Shown one piece after another: positions 2,421 through 8,810 of a stretch of 36,939 nt of DNA. Each line of letters opens with the position of its first letter. The first letter of the stretch is position 1. Made by a program: the position numbers and the translations under genes. This DNA is from a virus. Under the pieces are notes generated by a model that was given only the letters and a program-made list of their open reading frames with translations, ran no database searches and was not told the DNA's origin. The stretch is taken from the UHGV virus genome UHGV-0114473; one strand, written 5' to 3'.

Positions 2421-3323
2421 TCAGTAGTTATGTACTGAAGGAGGTAATTCTTTATTCTTAAGTCTCATCCATGCGGAAAGATTCGTTGGTCCGTCTGGCT
2501 CATTAATATCAACATCTCTTGTGTGATTGATTAAAACGTCTCTCGCCATTCCGATAACATACGAGAATTCATGACCGTAGTCGTAGCATCTGCCGGAATA
2601 GTTCGATTGAATTTGTTTTAATGCCGGATACAGTTCACGGAATAATGCCTGTGAGCGGTTGGCATAATCCCATAACCATACAAGGCTGTTTGCTTCTTTC
2701 GCAGAAAGCTCGTTGGTTTTCTTCTCTTGTTTGCCAATGAACTCACCTTCAAGCACTACCCTGTGGATGTACTCTACGGCTTGCGGTATCTGAGATGCAT
2801 CAAGCTCTTCAATACTGTCCACATTGAAACGCTGATGAATCATTGCATAAGCTTCTGGGTACATTAGATGCTTTTTGCTGACTAGCATATTTACAGCATC
2901 ACGAAGCGGAGTCCTGTCATCAACAGATGTTTTCTTACGTGCATTTTCTTCCTTTCCCTTTGTCCAGTAGTCATGCAGCACAGTAAAGCATTCTTCCTGG
3001 TACTGAATAAGTTTATCGCGGATGTCAGCACGAACTTTCTCAGGGTTGATGCTGAACAGCCACCCATTTAACTTCTTCAAAGGAAGGCAGAGTAACTTAC
3101 GAAGCTTCCCATCAGCGGCAACCATGTTCATATGAACACAGTTGAATTTGCTAATCTGCTTCATGAGTTTTGTTTGCTGCGTTGACCAGCTCATTCCAAG
3201 GTTTTCAACGATTGGCTTCATCGCAACATATGCAACTCCGACAGCCATGGCGGTGATAATTTGCTGACCGTTGAATGGTACGTAAGAGGTGTTCACTGCT
3301 TCTAAAATTGCTATACTATTCAT
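2421..3323 (-). CDS. ant: Antirepressor Ant (P22 immI type)
   Basis: Translation from [21 protein letters not shown]… gives 300 aa, the size of P22 Ant. GGAG Shine-Dalgarno 11 nt upstream; synteny arc-ant-tailspike. The ORF track starts 22 codons earlier at 3389. Confidence 0.8.
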
Positions 3324-3385
3324 GTTGGTTTTTCTCCACGGATTTACTGACAACCGAAGCCCTGACTGTTCCCGCAGTTGGGGCT

Positions 3386-3607
3386 TCACTGTTTTTGTAA
3401 GTCACTGTAGCTATAAAGCCACTGACCACTCATTTTTGATTTGATTGACTCTACTGAATCACGGCAAGGAATGATTCCACCTGACATCATTCTGATCTCC
3501 GTAAATTCACCACTCCTTATCGACTCAATGCCATTAACGTTAACTAAAGATTTACCTCTACCAAGTGCATTCTCATAGCCAATCTCATCAACCTCGATAA
3601 ACTTCAT
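3386..3607 (-). CDS. Hypothetical 73-aa protein between arc and ant
   Basis: ORF whose ATG overlaps the arc stop (ATGA), suggesting translational coupling. No recognisable motif; P22 has no gene at this spot. Confidence 0.4.
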
Positions 3608-3756
3608 ACCGTTATCCCCTCTCTCTTCAGGCTGTCCAGCAATCGCTTAATCACTTCCGAGTTAAACGACCGGCATTCTTCTTTGGCCTTTCCTGTAATC
3701 GCATCTTTTAGCGACTGAGGCATTCTCACCAAAATTCTGCTAACTTCTTTTTCCAT
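3604..3756 (-). CDS. arc: Arc-like ribbon-helix-helix repressor
   Basis: [50 protein letters not shown], 50 aa. RHH pattern (…R.P…NGRS.NSE… equivalent) like P22 Arc. The second in-frame ATG is chosen because the predicted -10 overlaps the first. Confidence 0.75.
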   Translation of the reverse strand: MEKEVSRILVRMPQSLKDAITGKAKEECRSFNSEVIKRLLDSLKREGITV

Positions 3757-3865
3757 ATCGCCACCACGTGAGTTATTGTGAATCACAAACATATCACCGT
3801 GACTATATCAAGTCAAAATTTTTTTGAATACACTGTGATATCAATGTGATTATCACGGTGTAAGT
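3757..3865. promoter_or_regulatory. Divergent Pant/Pmnt control region with operator palindromes
   Basis: TTGACT -35 for the arc/ant promoter (rc of 3811..3816). Inverted repeats CACCGTGA (3795..3802) / TCACGGTG (3853..3860), GTGATA…TATCAC (3835..3856) and the palindrome TGATATCA. Confidence 0.5.
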
Positions 3866-4120
3866 ATGACGAAGGTTAGAGACATAGCCCCATATAGCGT
3901 AAGAATGCCAGATAGCCTCAAGCGCGACCTGACCATAAGAGCATCGAAAAACGGACGCTCATTAAATTCAGAAATAGTTATGATCTTGCAAGCTGCTATT
4001 GATGAAGAAAAATCACCAAGATCAATAGAAGGTTTTGCTCAACAAGAATCTGAAAAATTTAGGGAGGCTCTTCTTAAGACTCTCAGCAGCATGTACGGAG
4101 AAGATAAAAAACCCACCTGA
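3866..4120 (+). CDS. mnt: Mnt-like ribbon-helix-helix repressor
   Basis: MTKVRDIAPYSVRMPDSLKRDLTIRASKNGRSLNSEIVMILQAAIDEE…; RHH N-terminal motif and size (84 aa) match P22 Mnt (82 aa). Divergent from arc/ant. Confidence 0.8.
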   Translation: MTKVRDIAPYSVRMPDSLKRDLTIRASKNGRSLNSEIVMILQAAIDEEKSPRSIEGFAQQESEKFREALLKTLSSMYGEDKKPT

Positions 4121-4134
4121 CGGTGGGTTTTATT
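4106..4134. terminator. Bidirectional rho-independent terminator between mnt and the accessory cassette
   Basis: AAAAAA-CCCACC-TGAC-GGTGGG-TTTTATT: a GC stem flanked by an A-run and a T-run, so it can terminate both convergent transcripts. Confidence 0.6.
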
Positions 4135-4552
4135 AGTGCTTGTATAGGTTGAACTCTCTATCAAGCCATATAACAAAAAATGTCGATCCAAGACGATAAC
4201 CAACCATGGCTTTCAAATCATCAAATCTAAAAGCCAAGAAATGATCTACGTCTTCCGTTATATGACTGGGGATACCTGCTTTAATTGCACCCCTTGCAAT
4301 CTTCTCAAATCCAAGCTTATGCCTACCTTGCTGCTTAATATCTGCCCATGTTAGTTGACTTAATCTGTATAATTTATCAGCTAAGCCAGCTTTCTCATCT
4401 TTTTGGCATTTCGTTATGCAGTGAGAGCTTTGGATGTAACAGAATGAAAATTTCGGTTTCTTTTGATCTGAATTCCCCCCTGACTGCGGCCCTAACTTTA
4501 ACTTACCTGTAGATTCAGCAGGGGGGATAATCCTTTTAGATTTTCTTGCCAT
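4133..4552 (-). CDS. Hypothetical 139-aa protein, partner of the Panacea-domain gene (candidate toxin/effector)
   Basis: Start MARKSKRIIPPAESTG… lies 4 nt after the upstream gene's stop. Basic, low-complexity N-terminus; C-terminus …DHFLAFRFDDLKAMVGYRLGSTFFVIWLDREFNLYKH. No family recognised. Confidence 0.5.
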   Translation of the reverse strand: MARKSKRIIPPAESTGKLKLGPQSGGNSDQKKPKFSFCYIQSSHCITKCQKDEKAGLADKLYRLSQLTWADIKQQGRHKLGFEKIARGAIKAGIPSHITEDVDHFLAFRFDDLKAMVGYRLGSTFFVIWLDREFNLYKH

Positions 4553-4556
4553 CTCG

Positions 4557-5006
4557 TTAGTTAATCCGAGTTGCAAAGTACTCTGCCATCTCCTTAGAAC
4601 TAATTTCAGAACCACCAACACCCTCAATATAGTTTGATCTCCATGGTGACTCTTCGTGTGTCATGTTCCTCAGTTTCCAGGCAGAAAATTGCCCAAAAAC
4701 ATCCCAGACTTCTTCTAATAGCTCTAACTGTTCTTCGCTGAATTTTTCAGCATCAAAAGACTCTGGAGAAGGGATAGCACCATTACCATATTGTTTATAA
4801 CGGTGATAAAGCTCAGGGACAACAGGGCCATGCATCCAAGCTTCCATCTTATTCTGAAAAAGAGGCTCGCCAAGCAACGCCAATGAAAAACCCTGAGCAT
4901 AGTAAACAAGCTTTTGTAATTTTAAATTAGAGATTGCGTCACCGCTATCCTCGTCACACCGCGACAGGAAGTAGTCGGCGACATCAAAACAAGTAAGCAT
5001 GAACAC
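4557..5006 (-). CDS. Panacea/DUF4065 (SocA/GepA-like) domain protein, putative antitoxin
   Basis: Motifs LKLQKLVYYAQGFSLALLGEPLF…EAWMHGPVVPELYHRY…THEESPW typical of PF13274 (recalled, not searched). GGAGG Shine-Dalgarno 8 nt upstream of the ATG. Confidence 0.7.
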   Translation of the reverse strand: MFMLTCFDVADYFLSRCDEDSGDAISNLKLQKLVYYAQGFSLALLGEPLFQNKMEAWMHGPVVPELYHRYKQYGNGAIPSPESFDAEKFSEEQLELLEEVWDVFGQFSAWKLRNMTHEESPWRSNYIEGVGGSEISSKEMAEYFATRIN

Positions 5007-5374
5007 ACCTCCATCTTGATAGCCACAGCTAAGTATCCAACTATGTCAAATGTCATTTAATACTATAACAAAGCTATCAGCAATCCTTCGGAGGCTAACT
5101 TACAACCACTTTAGCGACATGTTTAAACCATTACGTTTCACATTTACTGCATTTTCGCCGAAGTTACCTATAAGGTAATGTCACATTTCCTGCAAGTTTC
5201 ATGCAATGTTGAAAAGTGAGCTATTCACTTTTCTATGACACCAAACACCAAAAATAGCACTTTTTGCTAAATCATTCGTCCAAGTTGTGGATGGTTTGTC
5301 GTTGACACGTTTTCACACACCACTCCACCAATAAAGTATCATCTGGTATCCTGAGCAAAACTAAGGAGGTTGGT

Positions 5375-5563
5375 GTGAAGAAAAAATTTGTAAACGTTGC
5401 AAAGTGCGCAATTTTTATATTTTTTATGACCTTTTACGGATTTAGTGCCGGAGAAGGTTTCGATCGTGATGCCAATGCATTCAGTTTCTTTTGTCTGTCT
5501 ATAGTGGTCATAATTGTATGGGTGGAATTAAAGCAAACATTGTTTCATGTGCTAGGGAAATAA
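5375..5563 (+). CDS. Small hydrophobic (2-TM-like) 62-aa protein
   Basis: GTG start preceded by a strong AAGGAGG Shine-Dalgarno at 5-nt spacing. Two hydrophobic segments (AIFIFFMTFYGF, FFCLSIVVIIVWV). Convergent with the ejection-protein gene. Confidence 0.4.
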   Translation: MKKKFVNVAKCAIFIFFMTFYGFSAGEGFDRDANAFSFFCLSIVVIIVWVELKQTLFHVLGK

Positions 5564-5580
5564 CCATCCATGGCATTTAG

Positions 5581-7446
5581 TCACTGCTGTGTTGCCTCAG
5601 TGGCAAGCAGCGGTCTGATGGCATTTGCAGCGTTACTTAATGCTCTTTCATAGGCTGGCGTTCCTGCTTTGGTGTTTGCCAGACGTAAGAGCGCATTCCT
5701 GGCCATAGGGCTTTCATAAACCCTCGACATAAGGCCAATCCCTGTTTCCCCAGCCAATAGCGCGCCTCCGGTTTTTAGGTTACCAATAACCCTTACCAAA
5801 GGCGAGAGTGTCATGCCAGTCTTCGTCACAACATTAGCCTCAGATGCTCTTTTGGTAGCATCGAGAATAGATAACATCCCCTCTATCTCTTTTCCGTTCT
5901 TCCCACCAAATACAGTTTTAAACACCTGACCATTTGCTTGTTTTTGCAGCTTGCCAAGCTCGGTCATCATTTTCTGAGGGCTGTCACCTACCTTGTCAGC
6001 TATTTTGCTGATATATGCCGCCCTTAGCATGTCTTTACCTTTTTGATCGAGTTTCCCGTACAATCGAGCTATATCTGACCCATATTGTCCATACACAATG
6101 GTATTTACAGCCTCGGGAGTTAAATCTCCTTTGTTTAGAACGTTTTTAAGGCGCGTTTGAGTTGCATGTGTTGCCATTTTTGCATAATCAGCTTTTCCCG
6201 CTCTCCATGCTGAAGCATCTTTTGGGCTAAGTCCTTTCGCTATAGATTTACTAAGGCTATTGGTTAGCGAGTTATAGACCCTGTCGACCATTGTTTGCGA
6301 CATTGATGGCAGAACTGTACGATCGCCTTTTACGTCAATGCGGAACTGAGTTCTCAGCTTATCAAGTAACTCAAAGGCATCATCTCCATTTGTTATCTCC
6401 TGAATGGCATTCTTATAATCATTAAGCGCAGAAATGGTCTGGGTGTCAGAAACACCTTTAAGTTTCCCAAGTTCGTTTACTGCTCCGTCGATAGCTCTTA
6501 TGGCGCCACTTGTATCAACTGGCTTTCCAACCATTCTTCCTGACAGGCTGTTTAGTTTTGACTTGGCTAACGATTTTTCCCTTGCAACGCCTGACTTTAG
6601 ACTATCAACGACTACAGATGGATCGTAGTCGCCGTATTTTTCGGTGAAGCGATTAACAAGCTTGGTTCTGGCATCCTGCTGTGCGGCTCTCATTGGTCCA
6701 GTACCAGCTATGACTCCTTCTGAGTAACCCTGCAGTTGATTGCCAAGTTTTGTTTTTGGAGGAACTACATCCGATGTCATAACTGGTACATCTGCCGCAG
6801 CGGCACGCTTGAGCAATTGCTGATCTGCTGGTGATATTTCGCCACGAACAGCAGTAATTCCACGCCCTATTCCCTTTGCTGCTGCGGAAAGAACCCCCTG
6901 AGCGGCAAGGTTAACTCCGGCATTTTTAGCTGCATTTTGTGCGAAATCGCCTTTCTGATTTGCGGCCTCTGCCAGTGATCCAATAGCCATGCTTCCTGCC
7001 GTTCCAACTCCTGGAACTAAATACCCGCCAATTGTTTCTCCAGCTTGCGCATAAGGGTCTGTTGGTCGATCTACTGGACGATAGACATCGTCCAAAACCT
7101 TGGGGCCACCAAGCCCCTGGCTGATTGCATTAATCAGACTTGCGCCACCCTGCAATACGTCAAATGGTATGTTTACCAGACCGCGACCAGCCTGCTCTGC
7201 AATTTGCCCTGCACTTTGACCACCAGTGAGCCAATCGCCAGCTTGTTGCATCAATGATGGTTCTTCTTTCTGCTGCTGAGGCGGAGGGTATGCTGCATAA
7301 AACTGATCTCTTGCTTCAGCCCATTTGTCACCAGCCTTAGGGGCAACAACCTCATCAAAATATTGCGCTTGAGCCTGTGCTTTCTGTTCTTCAGTTAACG
7401 CCTGATACTGTGGAGAGGCGATAACATCTTTCCATGCTTTAGCCAT
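5581..7446 (-). CDS. Ejection (DNA-transfer) protein, P22 gp16-like
   Basis: 621 aa at the gp16 position, last of the gp7/gp20/gp16 trio. Ala/Gly-rich with coiled-coil-like composition. Confidence 0.75.
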   Translation of the reverse strand: MAKAWKDVIASPQYQALTEEQKAQAQAQYFDEVVAPKAGDKWAEARDQFYAAYPPPQQQKEEPSLMQQAGDWLTGGQSAGQIAEQAGRGLVNIPFDVLQGGASLINAISQGLGGPKVLDDVYRPVDRPTDPYAQAGETIGGYLVPGVGTAGSMAIGSLAEAANQKGDFAQNAAKNAGVNLAAQGVLSAAAKGIGRGITAVRGEISPADQQLLKRAAAADVPVMTSDVVPPKTKLGNQLQGYSEGVIAGTGPMRAAQQDARTKLVNRFTEKYGDYDPSVVVDSLKSGVAREKSLAKSKLNSLSGRMVGKPVDTSGAIRAIDGAVNELGKLKGVSDTQTISALNDYKNAIQEITNGDDAFELLDKLRTQFRIDVKGDRTVLPSMSQTMVDRVYNSLTNSLSKSIAKGLSPKDASAWRAGKADYAKMATHATQTRLKNVLNKGDLTPEAVNTIVYGQYGSDIARLYGKLDQKGKDMLRAAYISKIADKVGDSPQKMMTELGKLQKQANGQVFKTVFGGKNGKEIEGMLSILDATKRASEANVVTKTGMTLSPLVRVIGNLKTGGALLAGETGIGLMSRVYESPMARNALLRLANTKAGTPAYERALSNAANAIRPLLATEATQQ

Positions 7447-8810
7447 TAATCACCCCATAGTGAAGAAAAGTTACTGCTGGCTGCTGGCTGTGATACCTGT
7501 GTAGGTTGAGATTGCTGCCGCTGAGATTTACCAACATTAACGTTATATTGTTGGTTGTAATTGTCGGTATATTGCTGAATGTCGCGCATTGATTGTTGCA
7601 GTGCTTCAGGGCTTGAGAAATCAACCTGTGGCATACCTTGAAAATACATCTTTGCTTCTGCAACGGTGTTGATACCGGATGCCCCCATGTCTCTGGCTGC
7701 TGCAATGCCCTGATTCTGCATCTTTCCTTGGATTCGCTGTGCAGCGTTGTATAGTTTCCTCTGATCACCACCAGATGCACGGCTACGAATATCTGCACCA
7801 AGAGCAGGAGAACCTGAAGAGCCTGTAATGCCAGTCATGAAGCCAAGATCGTCAATTGATGCACCAGAAATTGCATCAAGATCTTTCTTCATTGCGTAAT
7901 TCTGCGCGCTTGCTGCCGATGTAGCCGGAGCAGCAATAGAGCCAGCAGGAACGCGAACCATGTTCCCCTCATTGTCTATTCCTTCGTAGAACGCGTTAGC
8001 ACCTGCACCATGAAGCTTCCCGCCTACGGTTACAGTTCTTCCGTCTGCTAGTTGAACTGTGCGCTCATTATTACCAACGGCCCCTTTCATTGATGCTCTC
8101 TGCATCGCTAAATCCTGACCTCTCCGTGCAGTAGCAGCAGATAAATCCTGACCGCGCATCGTGATATCCTGACCACGAGCAGTTAACTGATTTCTTTCTC
8201 CTTCAAGTCGACGCCCCTCCATTCGATCTTTGATATCGAAGTACTTCTCATGACCGAGAGAAAATAGTGCCAGATTACCTGCAAAGTGCTGGAAGCCCTG
8301 CGGGTCATTAACCTGCATTTCAGCAATAGTTTCTGGAGGGATACCTAAACGACGCATCTCCTTTTCGTTATCCATCATGAACCTGCCAAATGCACCCGAG
8401 CCAAGCGACGAAGCTACCTGAGCCTTGAGCGCCAGATTGCCAAAATCATCCCGCTGGGCGTCATCGACATAGCCCATTCCTTTACGGACTTCCTCAAACT
8501 CTTCAGGGAATGCTGTAATAAGATTACGCATCTGCTCCCTGTCGCCGGACGCATAAGCATCTGCATAACCTTTCTGGAATGCAGCTTTACGCTCCTGCTG
8601 TTGCTGCTGCTTATAAATATCAGCAACTCCAGCCAGACCACGTAACGCGGTCAGACCAACGTTATTTGCACCTGATCGAGCCAGTTCATTGTTTTCGCGG
8701 ATCAGACCAAGCGTTGCGTTAATGTCGCTTGCCTTTGGCGCATTCTCATTTTGCGCACCGATGCCAGCAAGAAACCCACCAGAATTAATACCCTGTTGCC
8801 ACGTAGCCAT
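7446..8810 (-). CDS. Ejection protein, P22 gp20-like
   Basis: 454 aa by synteny and size (P22 gp20 about 470 aa). Overlapping start/stop with neighbours. Confidence 0.75.

Follow-up and report, generated by a model that had tools for sequence, protein, structure and literature searches.

We analyzed ORF62, a 62-codon open reading frame (ORF) located on the plus strand of the viral genome UHGV-0114473 (positions 5375-5563 of the window, i.e., of the whole stretch of 36,939 nucleotides under analysis). The frame runs from a GTG start codon (5375-5377) to a TAA stop codon (5561-5563), its translation is MKKKFVNVAKCAIFIFFMTFYGFSAGEGFDRDANAFSFFCLSIVVIIVWVELKQTLFHVLGK, and a Shine-Dalgarno (SD) sequence, AAGGAGG (5363-5369, plus strand), lies 5 nt upstream of the GTG. 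In the whole window, just 3 sites have AGGAGG placed 4-9 nt ahead of the start codon of an ORF of at least 60 amino acids. The window belongs to a P22-like (Lederbergvirus) prophage and constitutes its "ant moron," the name given by Villafane et al. to the region between genes 16 and 9, which they described as in rapid flux (PMC2629481). Its gene order is gene 20, gene 16, a cassette position referred to here as the slot, a Panacea gene pair, mnt, arc, and ant, and its minus strand carries the late genes of the P22-like phage. Databases already listed the family of ORF62, both as a PHROG lacking annotation and under the name "hypothetical protein," and the region and the idea that it harbors morons have been published. 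What our analysis adds is that this family is a fixed neighbor of gene 16 and an allelic alternative to the superinfection exclusion gene sieA, that the slot, flanked by conserved linkers at either end, houses a catalogue of envelope cargoes, and that the association with Panacea is incidental.

An earlier note on this DNA had described a GTG-initiated ORF of 62 amino acids with an AAGGAGG sequence and two hydrophobic segments, lying in an AT-rich island on the strand opposite to a Panacea gene and about 370 bp from it. All of this was borne out by our analysis: the G+C content is 0.349 for ORF62, 0.395 for the island (4133-5563), and 0.471 for the window, and 368 nt separate the start codons of ORF62 and the Panacea gene (start at 5006). 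The same note had called ORF62 convergent, next to the Panacea cassette, which needs correcting: ORF62 diverges from the Panacea gene, and its convergent neighbor is gene 16, whose stop codon lies 17 nt from that of ORF62.

The product of ORF62 has two hydrophobic helical segments, spanning residues ~11-26 (mean Kyte-Doolittle value of 1.7) and 36-50 (mean of 2.8). Its N-terminus has a charge of +4 (four lysines), the short acidic loop EGFDRDANA between the segments has a net charge of -2, and the C-terminal tail is basic. An AlphaFold2 model built from a seven-sequence alignment (pLDDT 71) places helices at residues 2-24 and 29-61. Since hydropathy and charge distribution fit a two-helix hairpin and AlphaFold2 gives two helices, we infer that the product is a helical hairpin inserted in the inner membrane. 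Based on the positive-inside rule (N-terminus +4, loop -2), both ends are probably cytoplasmic, with the short acidic loop in the periplasm.

ORF62 is almost certainly a genuine protein-coding gene. All of its residues (1-62) align with the full profile (1-62 of 62) of phrog_21338, a PHROGs v4 family of unknown function (E = 4.3e-45). This is the sole PHROG hit at E <= 0.1, and the homologues P0007 and P0008 match the same profile. A word-indexed search of 5.8 billion proteins identified 62-amino-acid homologues with 79-82% identity, labeled "hypothetical protein," in Salmonella enterica and Serratia fonticola, while 1.84 billion cluster representatives, searched exhaustively with a profile, yielded only 12 hits, including proteins of 61-66 amino acids at 32-53% identity. 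Down to 32% identity, family members keep a length of 61-66 codons, an SD sequence and a start codon, and all insertions and deletions are in frame and limited to the loop and the ends. Residues K10, F14, M18, G22, and W49 are invariant across the family, and S37, F38, I43, I46, I47, E51, and K53 nearly so; the invariant residues of helix 1 lie on one face of the helix, given their i, i+4, i+8, i+12 spacing. Among closer copies, pairwise dN/dS values range from 0.16 to 0.41, with a synonymous excess (binomial p = 0.002-0.035). In ten divergent copies the +1 frame is the sole stop-free frame (10/10), and all ten have an SD-like purine run 5-8 nt ahead of a start codon that alternates between GTG and ATG. 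From base composition, the chance of a 62-codon open frame at the G+C content of ORF62 is ~0.01 per frame; the conservation of frame, length, SD sequence, and start codon down to 32% identity indicates that ORF62 is more than a chance ORF.

The gene is carried by 89 of 5,426 complete Escherichia coli genomes and by just 4 of 50,697 phage records. ORF62 is unannotated in the GenBank records of phages phiv205-1, UPF_BP1, and JEP4 and in the RefSeq (PGAP) annotation of E. coli APEC IMT5155, and its homologues are annotated in some Salmonella and Serratia assemblies. A degenerate-pattern scan of GTDB genomes used a narrow pattern and returned one locus only (S. fonticola); the taxonomic breadth described here is not based on that scan. 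Sequence searches of Pfam, NCBIfam, PADLOC, and PDB with ORF62 and a 12-member family alignment returned nothing meaningful; in particular, none of the 12 family members matched a PADLOC-DB 2.0 defence profile at E <= 1. A Foldseek search of the AlphaFold2 model against viral structures returned generic helical hairpins only (all E > 0.6). Rfam searched at a permissive threshold gave no match at ORF62 on either strand, and RNA folding there was not significant (z = +0.70 for the minus strand and -1.54 for the plus strand). Literature searches recovered framework papers on the ant moron, SieA, and PanAT, and none on the ORF62 protein.

The most constant feature of the family is its position. 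Every member examined, including all seven remote representatives, adjoins the 3' end of gene 16, whether in Salmonella, E. coli, Serratia, or metagenomic contigs. In the window, the gene 16 homologue (5581-7446, minus strand) encodes a 621-amino-acid ejection protein with 53% identity to P22 gp16 (tblastn), which public records of near-identical sequence label gp16 or DNA transfer protein, and next to it lies a gene of the P22 gp20 family (7446-8810, minus strand; PF16928). The spacing between the stop codons of ORF62 and gene 16 is usually 17-18 nt; there is a 4-nt overlap in one case and an intervening gene of 95 amino acids in another. In five loci (L021-L024 and L057), the ORF62 homologue stands alone between gene 16 and the tailspike gene. 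The gp16 proteins encoded beside ORF62 copies range from 602 to 786 amino acids, and ORF62 copies with 97-98% identity adjoin gp16 proteins only 54-61% identical to that of the window. As near-identical ORF62 copies stand beside divergent gp16 proteins, the linkage is one of position, and breakpoints fall inside gene 16. The orientation of ORF62 is that of mnt and sieA, i.e., the prophage-expressed direction, and opposite to the late operon.

An imperfect hairpin of ~13 bp (5583-5613) lies downstream of the ORF62 stop codon, in the last codons of gene 16. It was not counted as a terminator, as no U-run follows it; it might stabilize the 3' end of the ORF62 transcript, and its fold is not significant relative to shuffled sequences (z = -1.54).

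The position beside gene 16 is the one occupied by sieA in P22. The region upstream of the ORF62 coding sequence carries a left linker (5344-5377, plus strand), the conserved leader of the sieA slot, which contains TGGTATCCT (5344-5352) and the 21-mer AAAACTAAGGAGGTTGGTGTG (5357-5377), with the SD sequence and the GTG start codon. These 34 nt match the start regions of P22 sieA, HK620 hkcB, and epsilon34 gene 14 at 94%, and P22 sieA has exactly the same 21 nt (5357-5377) in its start region. The 21-mer is invariant among eight aligned phages, and the sequences become unrelated straight after the GTG, where the genes for SieA (164 amino acids), HkcB (109 amino acids), Emek orf129, a YobH-family protein, or ORF62 begin. 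With a shared 21-mer followed by unrelated sequence, the GTG at 5375 is positionally homologous to the start codon of sieA. Read on the opposite strand, the conserved GGTATCCTG of the leader (5344-5352 in the window; 2499-2509 in locus L006) supplies the divergent gene hkcC of HK620-type loci with its AGGA ribosome-binding site and ATG region, and the start codons of hkcC and of the slot gene are 30 nt apart there; the slot leader may thus be a compact two-way translation-start region.

Upstream of the leader we identified a candidate promoter, TTCACA-N19-TATCAT (5312-5342, plus strand), consisting of TTCACA at 5312-5317, a 19-nt spacer, and TATCAT at 5337-5342. It shares its geometry and an equivalent distance from the start codon with the putative PsieA annotated in the P22-pbi record (TTGGTA-N19-TTTCAT; 2471-2501 in locus L005). 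By this analogy, ORF62 probably has a PsieA-like promoter. The arrangement was found by a scan admitting a 19-nt spacer; a generic promoter and terminator scan restricted to spacers of 16-18 nt found no plus-strand promoter upstream of ORF62, and gave only a weak terminator-like hairpin (5276-5294) in its vicinity.

The slot is also bounded on its other side. Directly 3' of the ORF62 stop codon lies a right linker, CCATCCATGGC (5564-5574, plus strand), and the sequence CCATCCNTGGC closes many cassettes of the slot. The pattern CCATCC[A/T/G]TGGC follows the stop codon of ORF62 homologues down to 44% identity, and the linker is also present after the stop codon of P22 sieA (as CCGTCCTTGGC), after the YobH-like cargo, and inside the 3' end of hkcB. 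When the window was compared with 45 other loci, blocks of high identity started at 5316-5376, mostly at 5337-5365, and ended at 5574, at 5585-5589, at 5682-5703, or deeper in the late genes. By these start and end positions, the smallest mobile unit consists of the SD sequence, ORF62, and the 11 nt after it.

A scan of IMG/VR for the exact 21-mer returned at least 121 instances (loci L061-L180), and among the matches listed at least 12 unrelated cargo families follow it. These are HkcB-like proteins (at least 35 instances), orf129-like proteins (at least 17), ORF62 (at least 12), type A SieA (at least 11), a 75-amino-acid two-helix protein (at least 9), a protein of 103-106 amino acids (at least 9), a 140-amino-acid protein (at least 8), a 116-amino-acid multi-helix protein (at least 6), a 99-amino-acid protein with a signal peptide (at least 5), a 149-amino-acid protein (at least 4), YobH-like proteins (at least 2), and a 42-amino-acid peptide (at least 1). 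The right linker occurs within 6 nt after the stop codon in 7 of these 12 families; the HkcB-like family has it at this place or within the 3' end of the gene. Segment prediction and inspection detected an N-terminal hydrophobic or signal segment in 11 of the 12 families, making the sieA position a slot for cassettes of small envelope proteins. The other cargoes, including HkcB, epsilon34 gp14, Emek orf129 (Sf6 gp38-like), the YobH-family protein, and the 75-amino-acid two-helix protein, have a left linker identical to that of ORF62 and often the same right linker, and nearly all are small envelope proteins of unknown function. They differ from ORF62 in that their sequences are unrelated to it; moreover, ORF62, unlike the other cargoes examined, stays beside gene 16 down to 32% identity and is also found behind other leaders with its own SD sequence.

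In Salmonella prophages (L016-L019; 4483-5189), a 161-amino-acid lipoprotein (lipobox LAGC, phrog_6067) has the sieA-type leader, and the ORF62 homologue begins 32 nt after it with its own GGAGG and GTG, which suggests a two-gene envelope operon; the signal peptide of this lipoprotein has a weak hit to the Cor exclusion family. In S. fonticola (L012-L015 and L025), the homologue has an ATG start codon and lies within 9 nt after a gene encoding a Rap1a-family protein (PF18602, type VI immunity-like). In a metagenomic contig (L020), it is preceded by the gene for a Fic-domain protein.

SieA proteins of types A-C are inner-membrane superinfection exclusion proteins of P22-like prophages, and sieA is present in just 22 of 66 P22-like phages (Leavitt et al., 2024, PMC10883804). 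The type-B SieA of prophage HS1 of E. coli HS, which is 24% identical, gives the same exclusion of P22-like phages when its gene is cloned together with the 106 bp upstream of it (PMC10883804). In HS1 (locus L060, 23702-26807), gene 16 is followed by the convergent type-B sieA (212 amino acids, with FNRYPGEARKFNK) and a C2-like repressor gene. Comparison of HS1 with an ORF62-bearing IMG/VR locus (L035) revealed 98.6% identity over 1,089 bp upstream as far as AAAACTAAGGAG, with repressor proteins that are 100% identical; the 106 bp cloned with HS1 sieA belong to this upstream DNA. Past AAAACTAAGGAG, HS1 has type-B sieA and L035 has ORF62, and beyond these genes the two loci are similar again (87.6%) where gene 16 ends. 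The L035 arrangement is also present in JEP4 and several other loci. Given these shared flanks, ORF62 and a validated sieA are alternative occupants of one site.

Based on this evidence, we tentatively favor, at somewhat less than an even chance, the reading that ORF62 is a prophage-expressed inner-membrane exclusion factor, positionally equivalent to SieA and non-homologous to it. ORF62 would be transcribed in the lysogen from the PsieA-like promoter, or elsewhere via read-through from upstream plus-strand genes, and translated from the ribosome-binding site and GTG of sieA. The hairpin would then insert in the inner membrane of the lysogen and interfere, within the membrane, with the gp16/gp20 DNA-delivery conduit of superinfecting P22-like phages, as SieA does. 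Phages escape SieA through mutations in the C-terminal regions of gp16 and gp20 (PMC10883804). A more ambitious version, on balance unlikely, makes ORF62 a minimal 62-residue injection blocker that could functionally stand in for the SieA proteins of 164-212 amino acids, working on the gp16/gp20 conduit from inside the membrane; its site would be dedicated to cassette exchange, with the shared SD-plus-GTG start and CCATCCNTGGC as short conserved linkers, and P22-like prophages would use it to swap at least 12 unrelated envelope-protein defences.

The comparison with SieA is close in position. Both genes use the slot between genes 16 and 9, beside gene 16 and convergent with it, on the strand of mnt; with type A, ORF62 shares the 21-nt SD and GTG start region and a similar stop-to-stop spacing, and with type B it shares the property that either gene sits between identical flanks. 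Both products are inner-membrane proteins, predicted or shown, encoded in the prophage-expressed orientation. They differ in size and architecture, as SieA has 164-212 amino acids and at least four predicted helices, whereas ORF62 has 62 amino acids and two hydrophobic segments; our hydrophobic-segment method gives four for P22 SieA and two for ORF62.

Several observations weigh against an exclusion function of this kind. ORF62 and SieA have no sequence similarity (the best blastp match to P22 SieA has E = 0.32 over 26 residues), and profile searches with ORF62 brought up only the family of 61-66 amino acids and no SieA. The FxRYPxEAxxFNK motif, conserved in the C-terminal, cytoplasmic part of SieA (PMC10883804), is absent from ORF62 even with up to 3 mismatches; it is likewise absent from all of the first 50 ORF62-bearing loci scanned (L001-L057) and present in P22 SieA and HS1 SieA. 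With a predicted periplasmic loop of only ~10 residues, ORF62 could touch the conduit only within the membrane. The promoter assignment is an analogy with PsieA, itself a putative promoter, and the late transcript must pass antisense through ORF62. The location of ORF62 homologues downstream of the leader-bearing lipoprotein (L016-L019) and of the Rap1a-family protein in Serratia implies that ORF62 may work with, or be secondary to, other envelope proteins. Finally, position in the slot is not function, and cargoes such as HkcB, the YobH-like protein, and the lipoproteins probably have varied roles. Of the earlier proposal that ORF62 is an independent exclusion gene, the independence, as far as Panacea is concerned, is upheld, and the support for exclusion is circumstantial, coming from the sieA slot, the sieA ribosome-binding site and start codon, and the replacement of a validated sieA. 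It should be noted that we considered whether ORF62 is a truncated remnant of sieA or of the 161-amino-acid lipoprotein, and this was ruled out, as blastp detected no similarity to either.

The best-surviving alternative to an exclusion factor of the SieA kind is lysogenic conversion, in which ORF62 would bind and modulate a host inner-membrane protein such as a transporter, a sensor kinase, or a secretion component. Small hairpin or single-pass regulators of enterobacterial membrane proteins are well known, including MgrB, AcrZ, and SafA. The K10-F14-M18-G22 stripe on one face of helix 1 suggests an intramembrane helix-helix partner, the slot holds at least 12 unrelated envelope cargoes that probably differ in function, and the family also stands behind the Rap1a-family protein in Serratia and the Fic protein in L020. 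However, ORF62 is an exact allelic substitute for a validated sieA and invariably neighbors gene 16, both of which favor a role at phage entry, and no data indicate a host partner. We therefore consider lysogenic conversion unlikely, although a serious contender, and include in this estimate the variant in which ORF62 excludes another class of phage or contact-dependent attack, rather than P22-type delivery.

The constant adjacency to gene 16 could also be taken to mean that ORF62 works with gp16 for the resident phage itself, for instance by managing gp16 at the membrane in lytic growth or after induction, rather than in defence of the lysogen. Homologues down to 32% identity are still syntenic with the 3' end of gene 16, ORF62 is sometimes the sole gene before the tailspike gene, and the last ~40 codons of gene 16 often co-travel with it (right breakpoints at 5703). 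In addition, P22 sieA has been reported to be upregulated on induction (PMC10883804). Nevertheless, transcription of ORF62 opposes that of the late operon, the gene is missing from most sequenced P22-like phages (4 of 50,697 phage records have it), the near-identical copies stand beside gp16 proteins of only 54-61% identity, and other mosaic blocks stop at 5574-5589, before gene 16. Taken together, a role in the phage's own cycle seems improbable.

Some of the remaining explanations involve the Panacea pair, which on the minus strand of the window is a self-contained, ordinary two-gene operon (module 4133-5006). The Panacea (PanA) gene (4557-5006) encodes a protein matching PF13274 (E = 8e-25), and its partner, whose ATG (4552) lies 4 nt past the PanA stop codon, encodes a 139-amino-acid protein of phrog_8366 with no Pfam match. 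Because the PHROG alignment begins at ATG 4552 and a RefSeq protein of 139 amino acids starts there, this codon is most likely the start, rather than that of a listed 164-amino-acid ORF. A G+C-rich 10-bp hairpin with T-runs on both strands (4108-4131), located between the convergent mnt (plus strand) and Panacea partner (minus strand) genes, looks like a bidirectional terminator. PanAT loci have been defined by no more than 100 nt between the genes and a conserved architecture, and the validated PanT toxins include peptides that depolarise the membrane (Kurata et al., 2022, PMC8832971). ORF62 resembles PanT membrane toxins in being small, hydrophobic, and near a Panacea-domain gene, but it lies outside the PanA operon, 368 nt away on the opposite strand and in divergent orientation, and the two are not co-conserved, while PanA already has an adjacent partner.

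The two genes assort independently. The Panacea cassette is contiguous with ORF62 in only 6 of the 89 ORF62-bearing E. coli genomes, and ~42 complete E. coli genomes have this Panacea cassette and leader without ORF62. A Panacea gene is present within 4 kb of ORF62 in 3 of 32 IMG/VR loci. Among the matches listed in the slot census, Panacea lies within 1.5 kb of 17 of 121 slots and of 1 of 12 ORF62 slots, so that its co-occurrence with ORF62 is no higher than the background near the slot, and the cassette pairs with at least 8 different lengths of slot cargo. Phages Emek, EC.P3, and E212 have the segment 5010-5383 (the Panacea side and the leader) without ORF62, and phages JEP4 and UPF_BP1 have the segment from 5337 or 5357 to 5600 (ORF62) without Panacea. 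Furthermore, the same Panacea cassette and leader precede other cargoes in Emek and in E. coli UID2309220007. Upstream of ORF62 we found at least 10 different neighbors, or none: an hkcC-like gene, genes for a P63C protein, lipoproteins, a PIN protein, C2-like repressors, Rap1a-family proteins, and Fic proteins, and the tailspike gene itself. The linkage between ORF62 and Panacea is thus incidental, and the earlier suggestion that ORF62 is a third component or toxin of the cassette found no support.

Alternatively, ORF62 might be a small membrane-damaging toxin, either type I-like or an abortive-infection effector, which antisense transcription or an antitoxin such as PanA would keep silent. 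Its product is small and hydrophobic, as are the PanT peptides that depolarise membranes, and the convergent late transcript would be antisense to it. Nothing positive points to toxicity, however. PanA has its cognate partner 4 nt downstream, ORF62 usually occurs without a Panacea gene or without any neighboring gene, no Rfam match or significant RNA structure was detected on the opposite strand, and a near-consensus SD sequence precedes the gene. Classical type I toxins have one helix and 20-50 amino acids, unlike the two helices and 62 amino acids of ORF62. Moreover, lysogens express the validated occupant of the slot, sieA, and in rich medium this affects their growth little or not at all (PMC10883804). 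A toxin is accordingly quite improbable. ORF62 does not fit a class II (two-helix) holin either, which would be encoded beside the endolysin in a lysis cassette and expressed late, as it is located in the ant moron, opposite to the late operon; the fold search gave non-significant hairpin matches (best E = 0.61), one of them labeled "holin" (E = 5.2).

That the ORF is untranslated, being a chance ORF or a nucleic-acid element such as a 3' element of the late operon, could be argued from its missing annotation in APEC IMT5155 and in three GenBank phage records; it is very improbable in view of the purifying selection, the length kept to 32% identity, the in-frame insertions and deletions, the retained SD sequence, the switch between GTG and ATG, the single open frame, and the non-significant RNA folds without an Rfam match. 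Least probable of all, and close to dismissible, is a third component of the Panacea cassette, for which only proximity in the window and the shared AT-rich island speak, against the opposite strand, the distance of 368 nt, the background level of co-occurrence, and the use of the same cassette and leader by other cargoes.

If ORF62 is an exclusion factor, its mode of action may resemble that of T4 Imm and HK97 gp15, which are small inner-membrane proteins of a resident phage or prophage that block DNA entry of a superinfecting phage. T4 Imm has ~83 amino acids and two predicted membrane segments. The likeness would lie in a small membrane protein of the resident phage at the DNA-entry step; we found no sequence relationship, and the phage types differ. 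How SieA halts P22-type DNA delivery at the inner membrane while tolerating very divergent gp16 and gp20 proteins is a standing question (PMC10883804), and a 62-residue hairpin in the place of sieA would be a far simpler handle on this inner-membrane delivery step, if ORF62 also excludes phages. The 21-nt left linker is a ready probe for small envelope proteins in the sieA position, most of them unstudied, and ORF62 itself was missed by annotation despite its presence in 89 complete E. coli genomes. Recognizing the Panacea pair as an ordinary two-gene module also removes a false lead.

Beyond the Panacea pair, the window encodes mnt (3866-4120, plus strand), arc (3604-3792, minus strand), and ant (2421-3389, minus strand). 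Between arc and ant lies a 73-amino-acid ORF (3386-3607, minus strand) of phrog_11805 (function unknown), named orf73 in phage Emek, which overlaps the arc stop codon by 4 nt.

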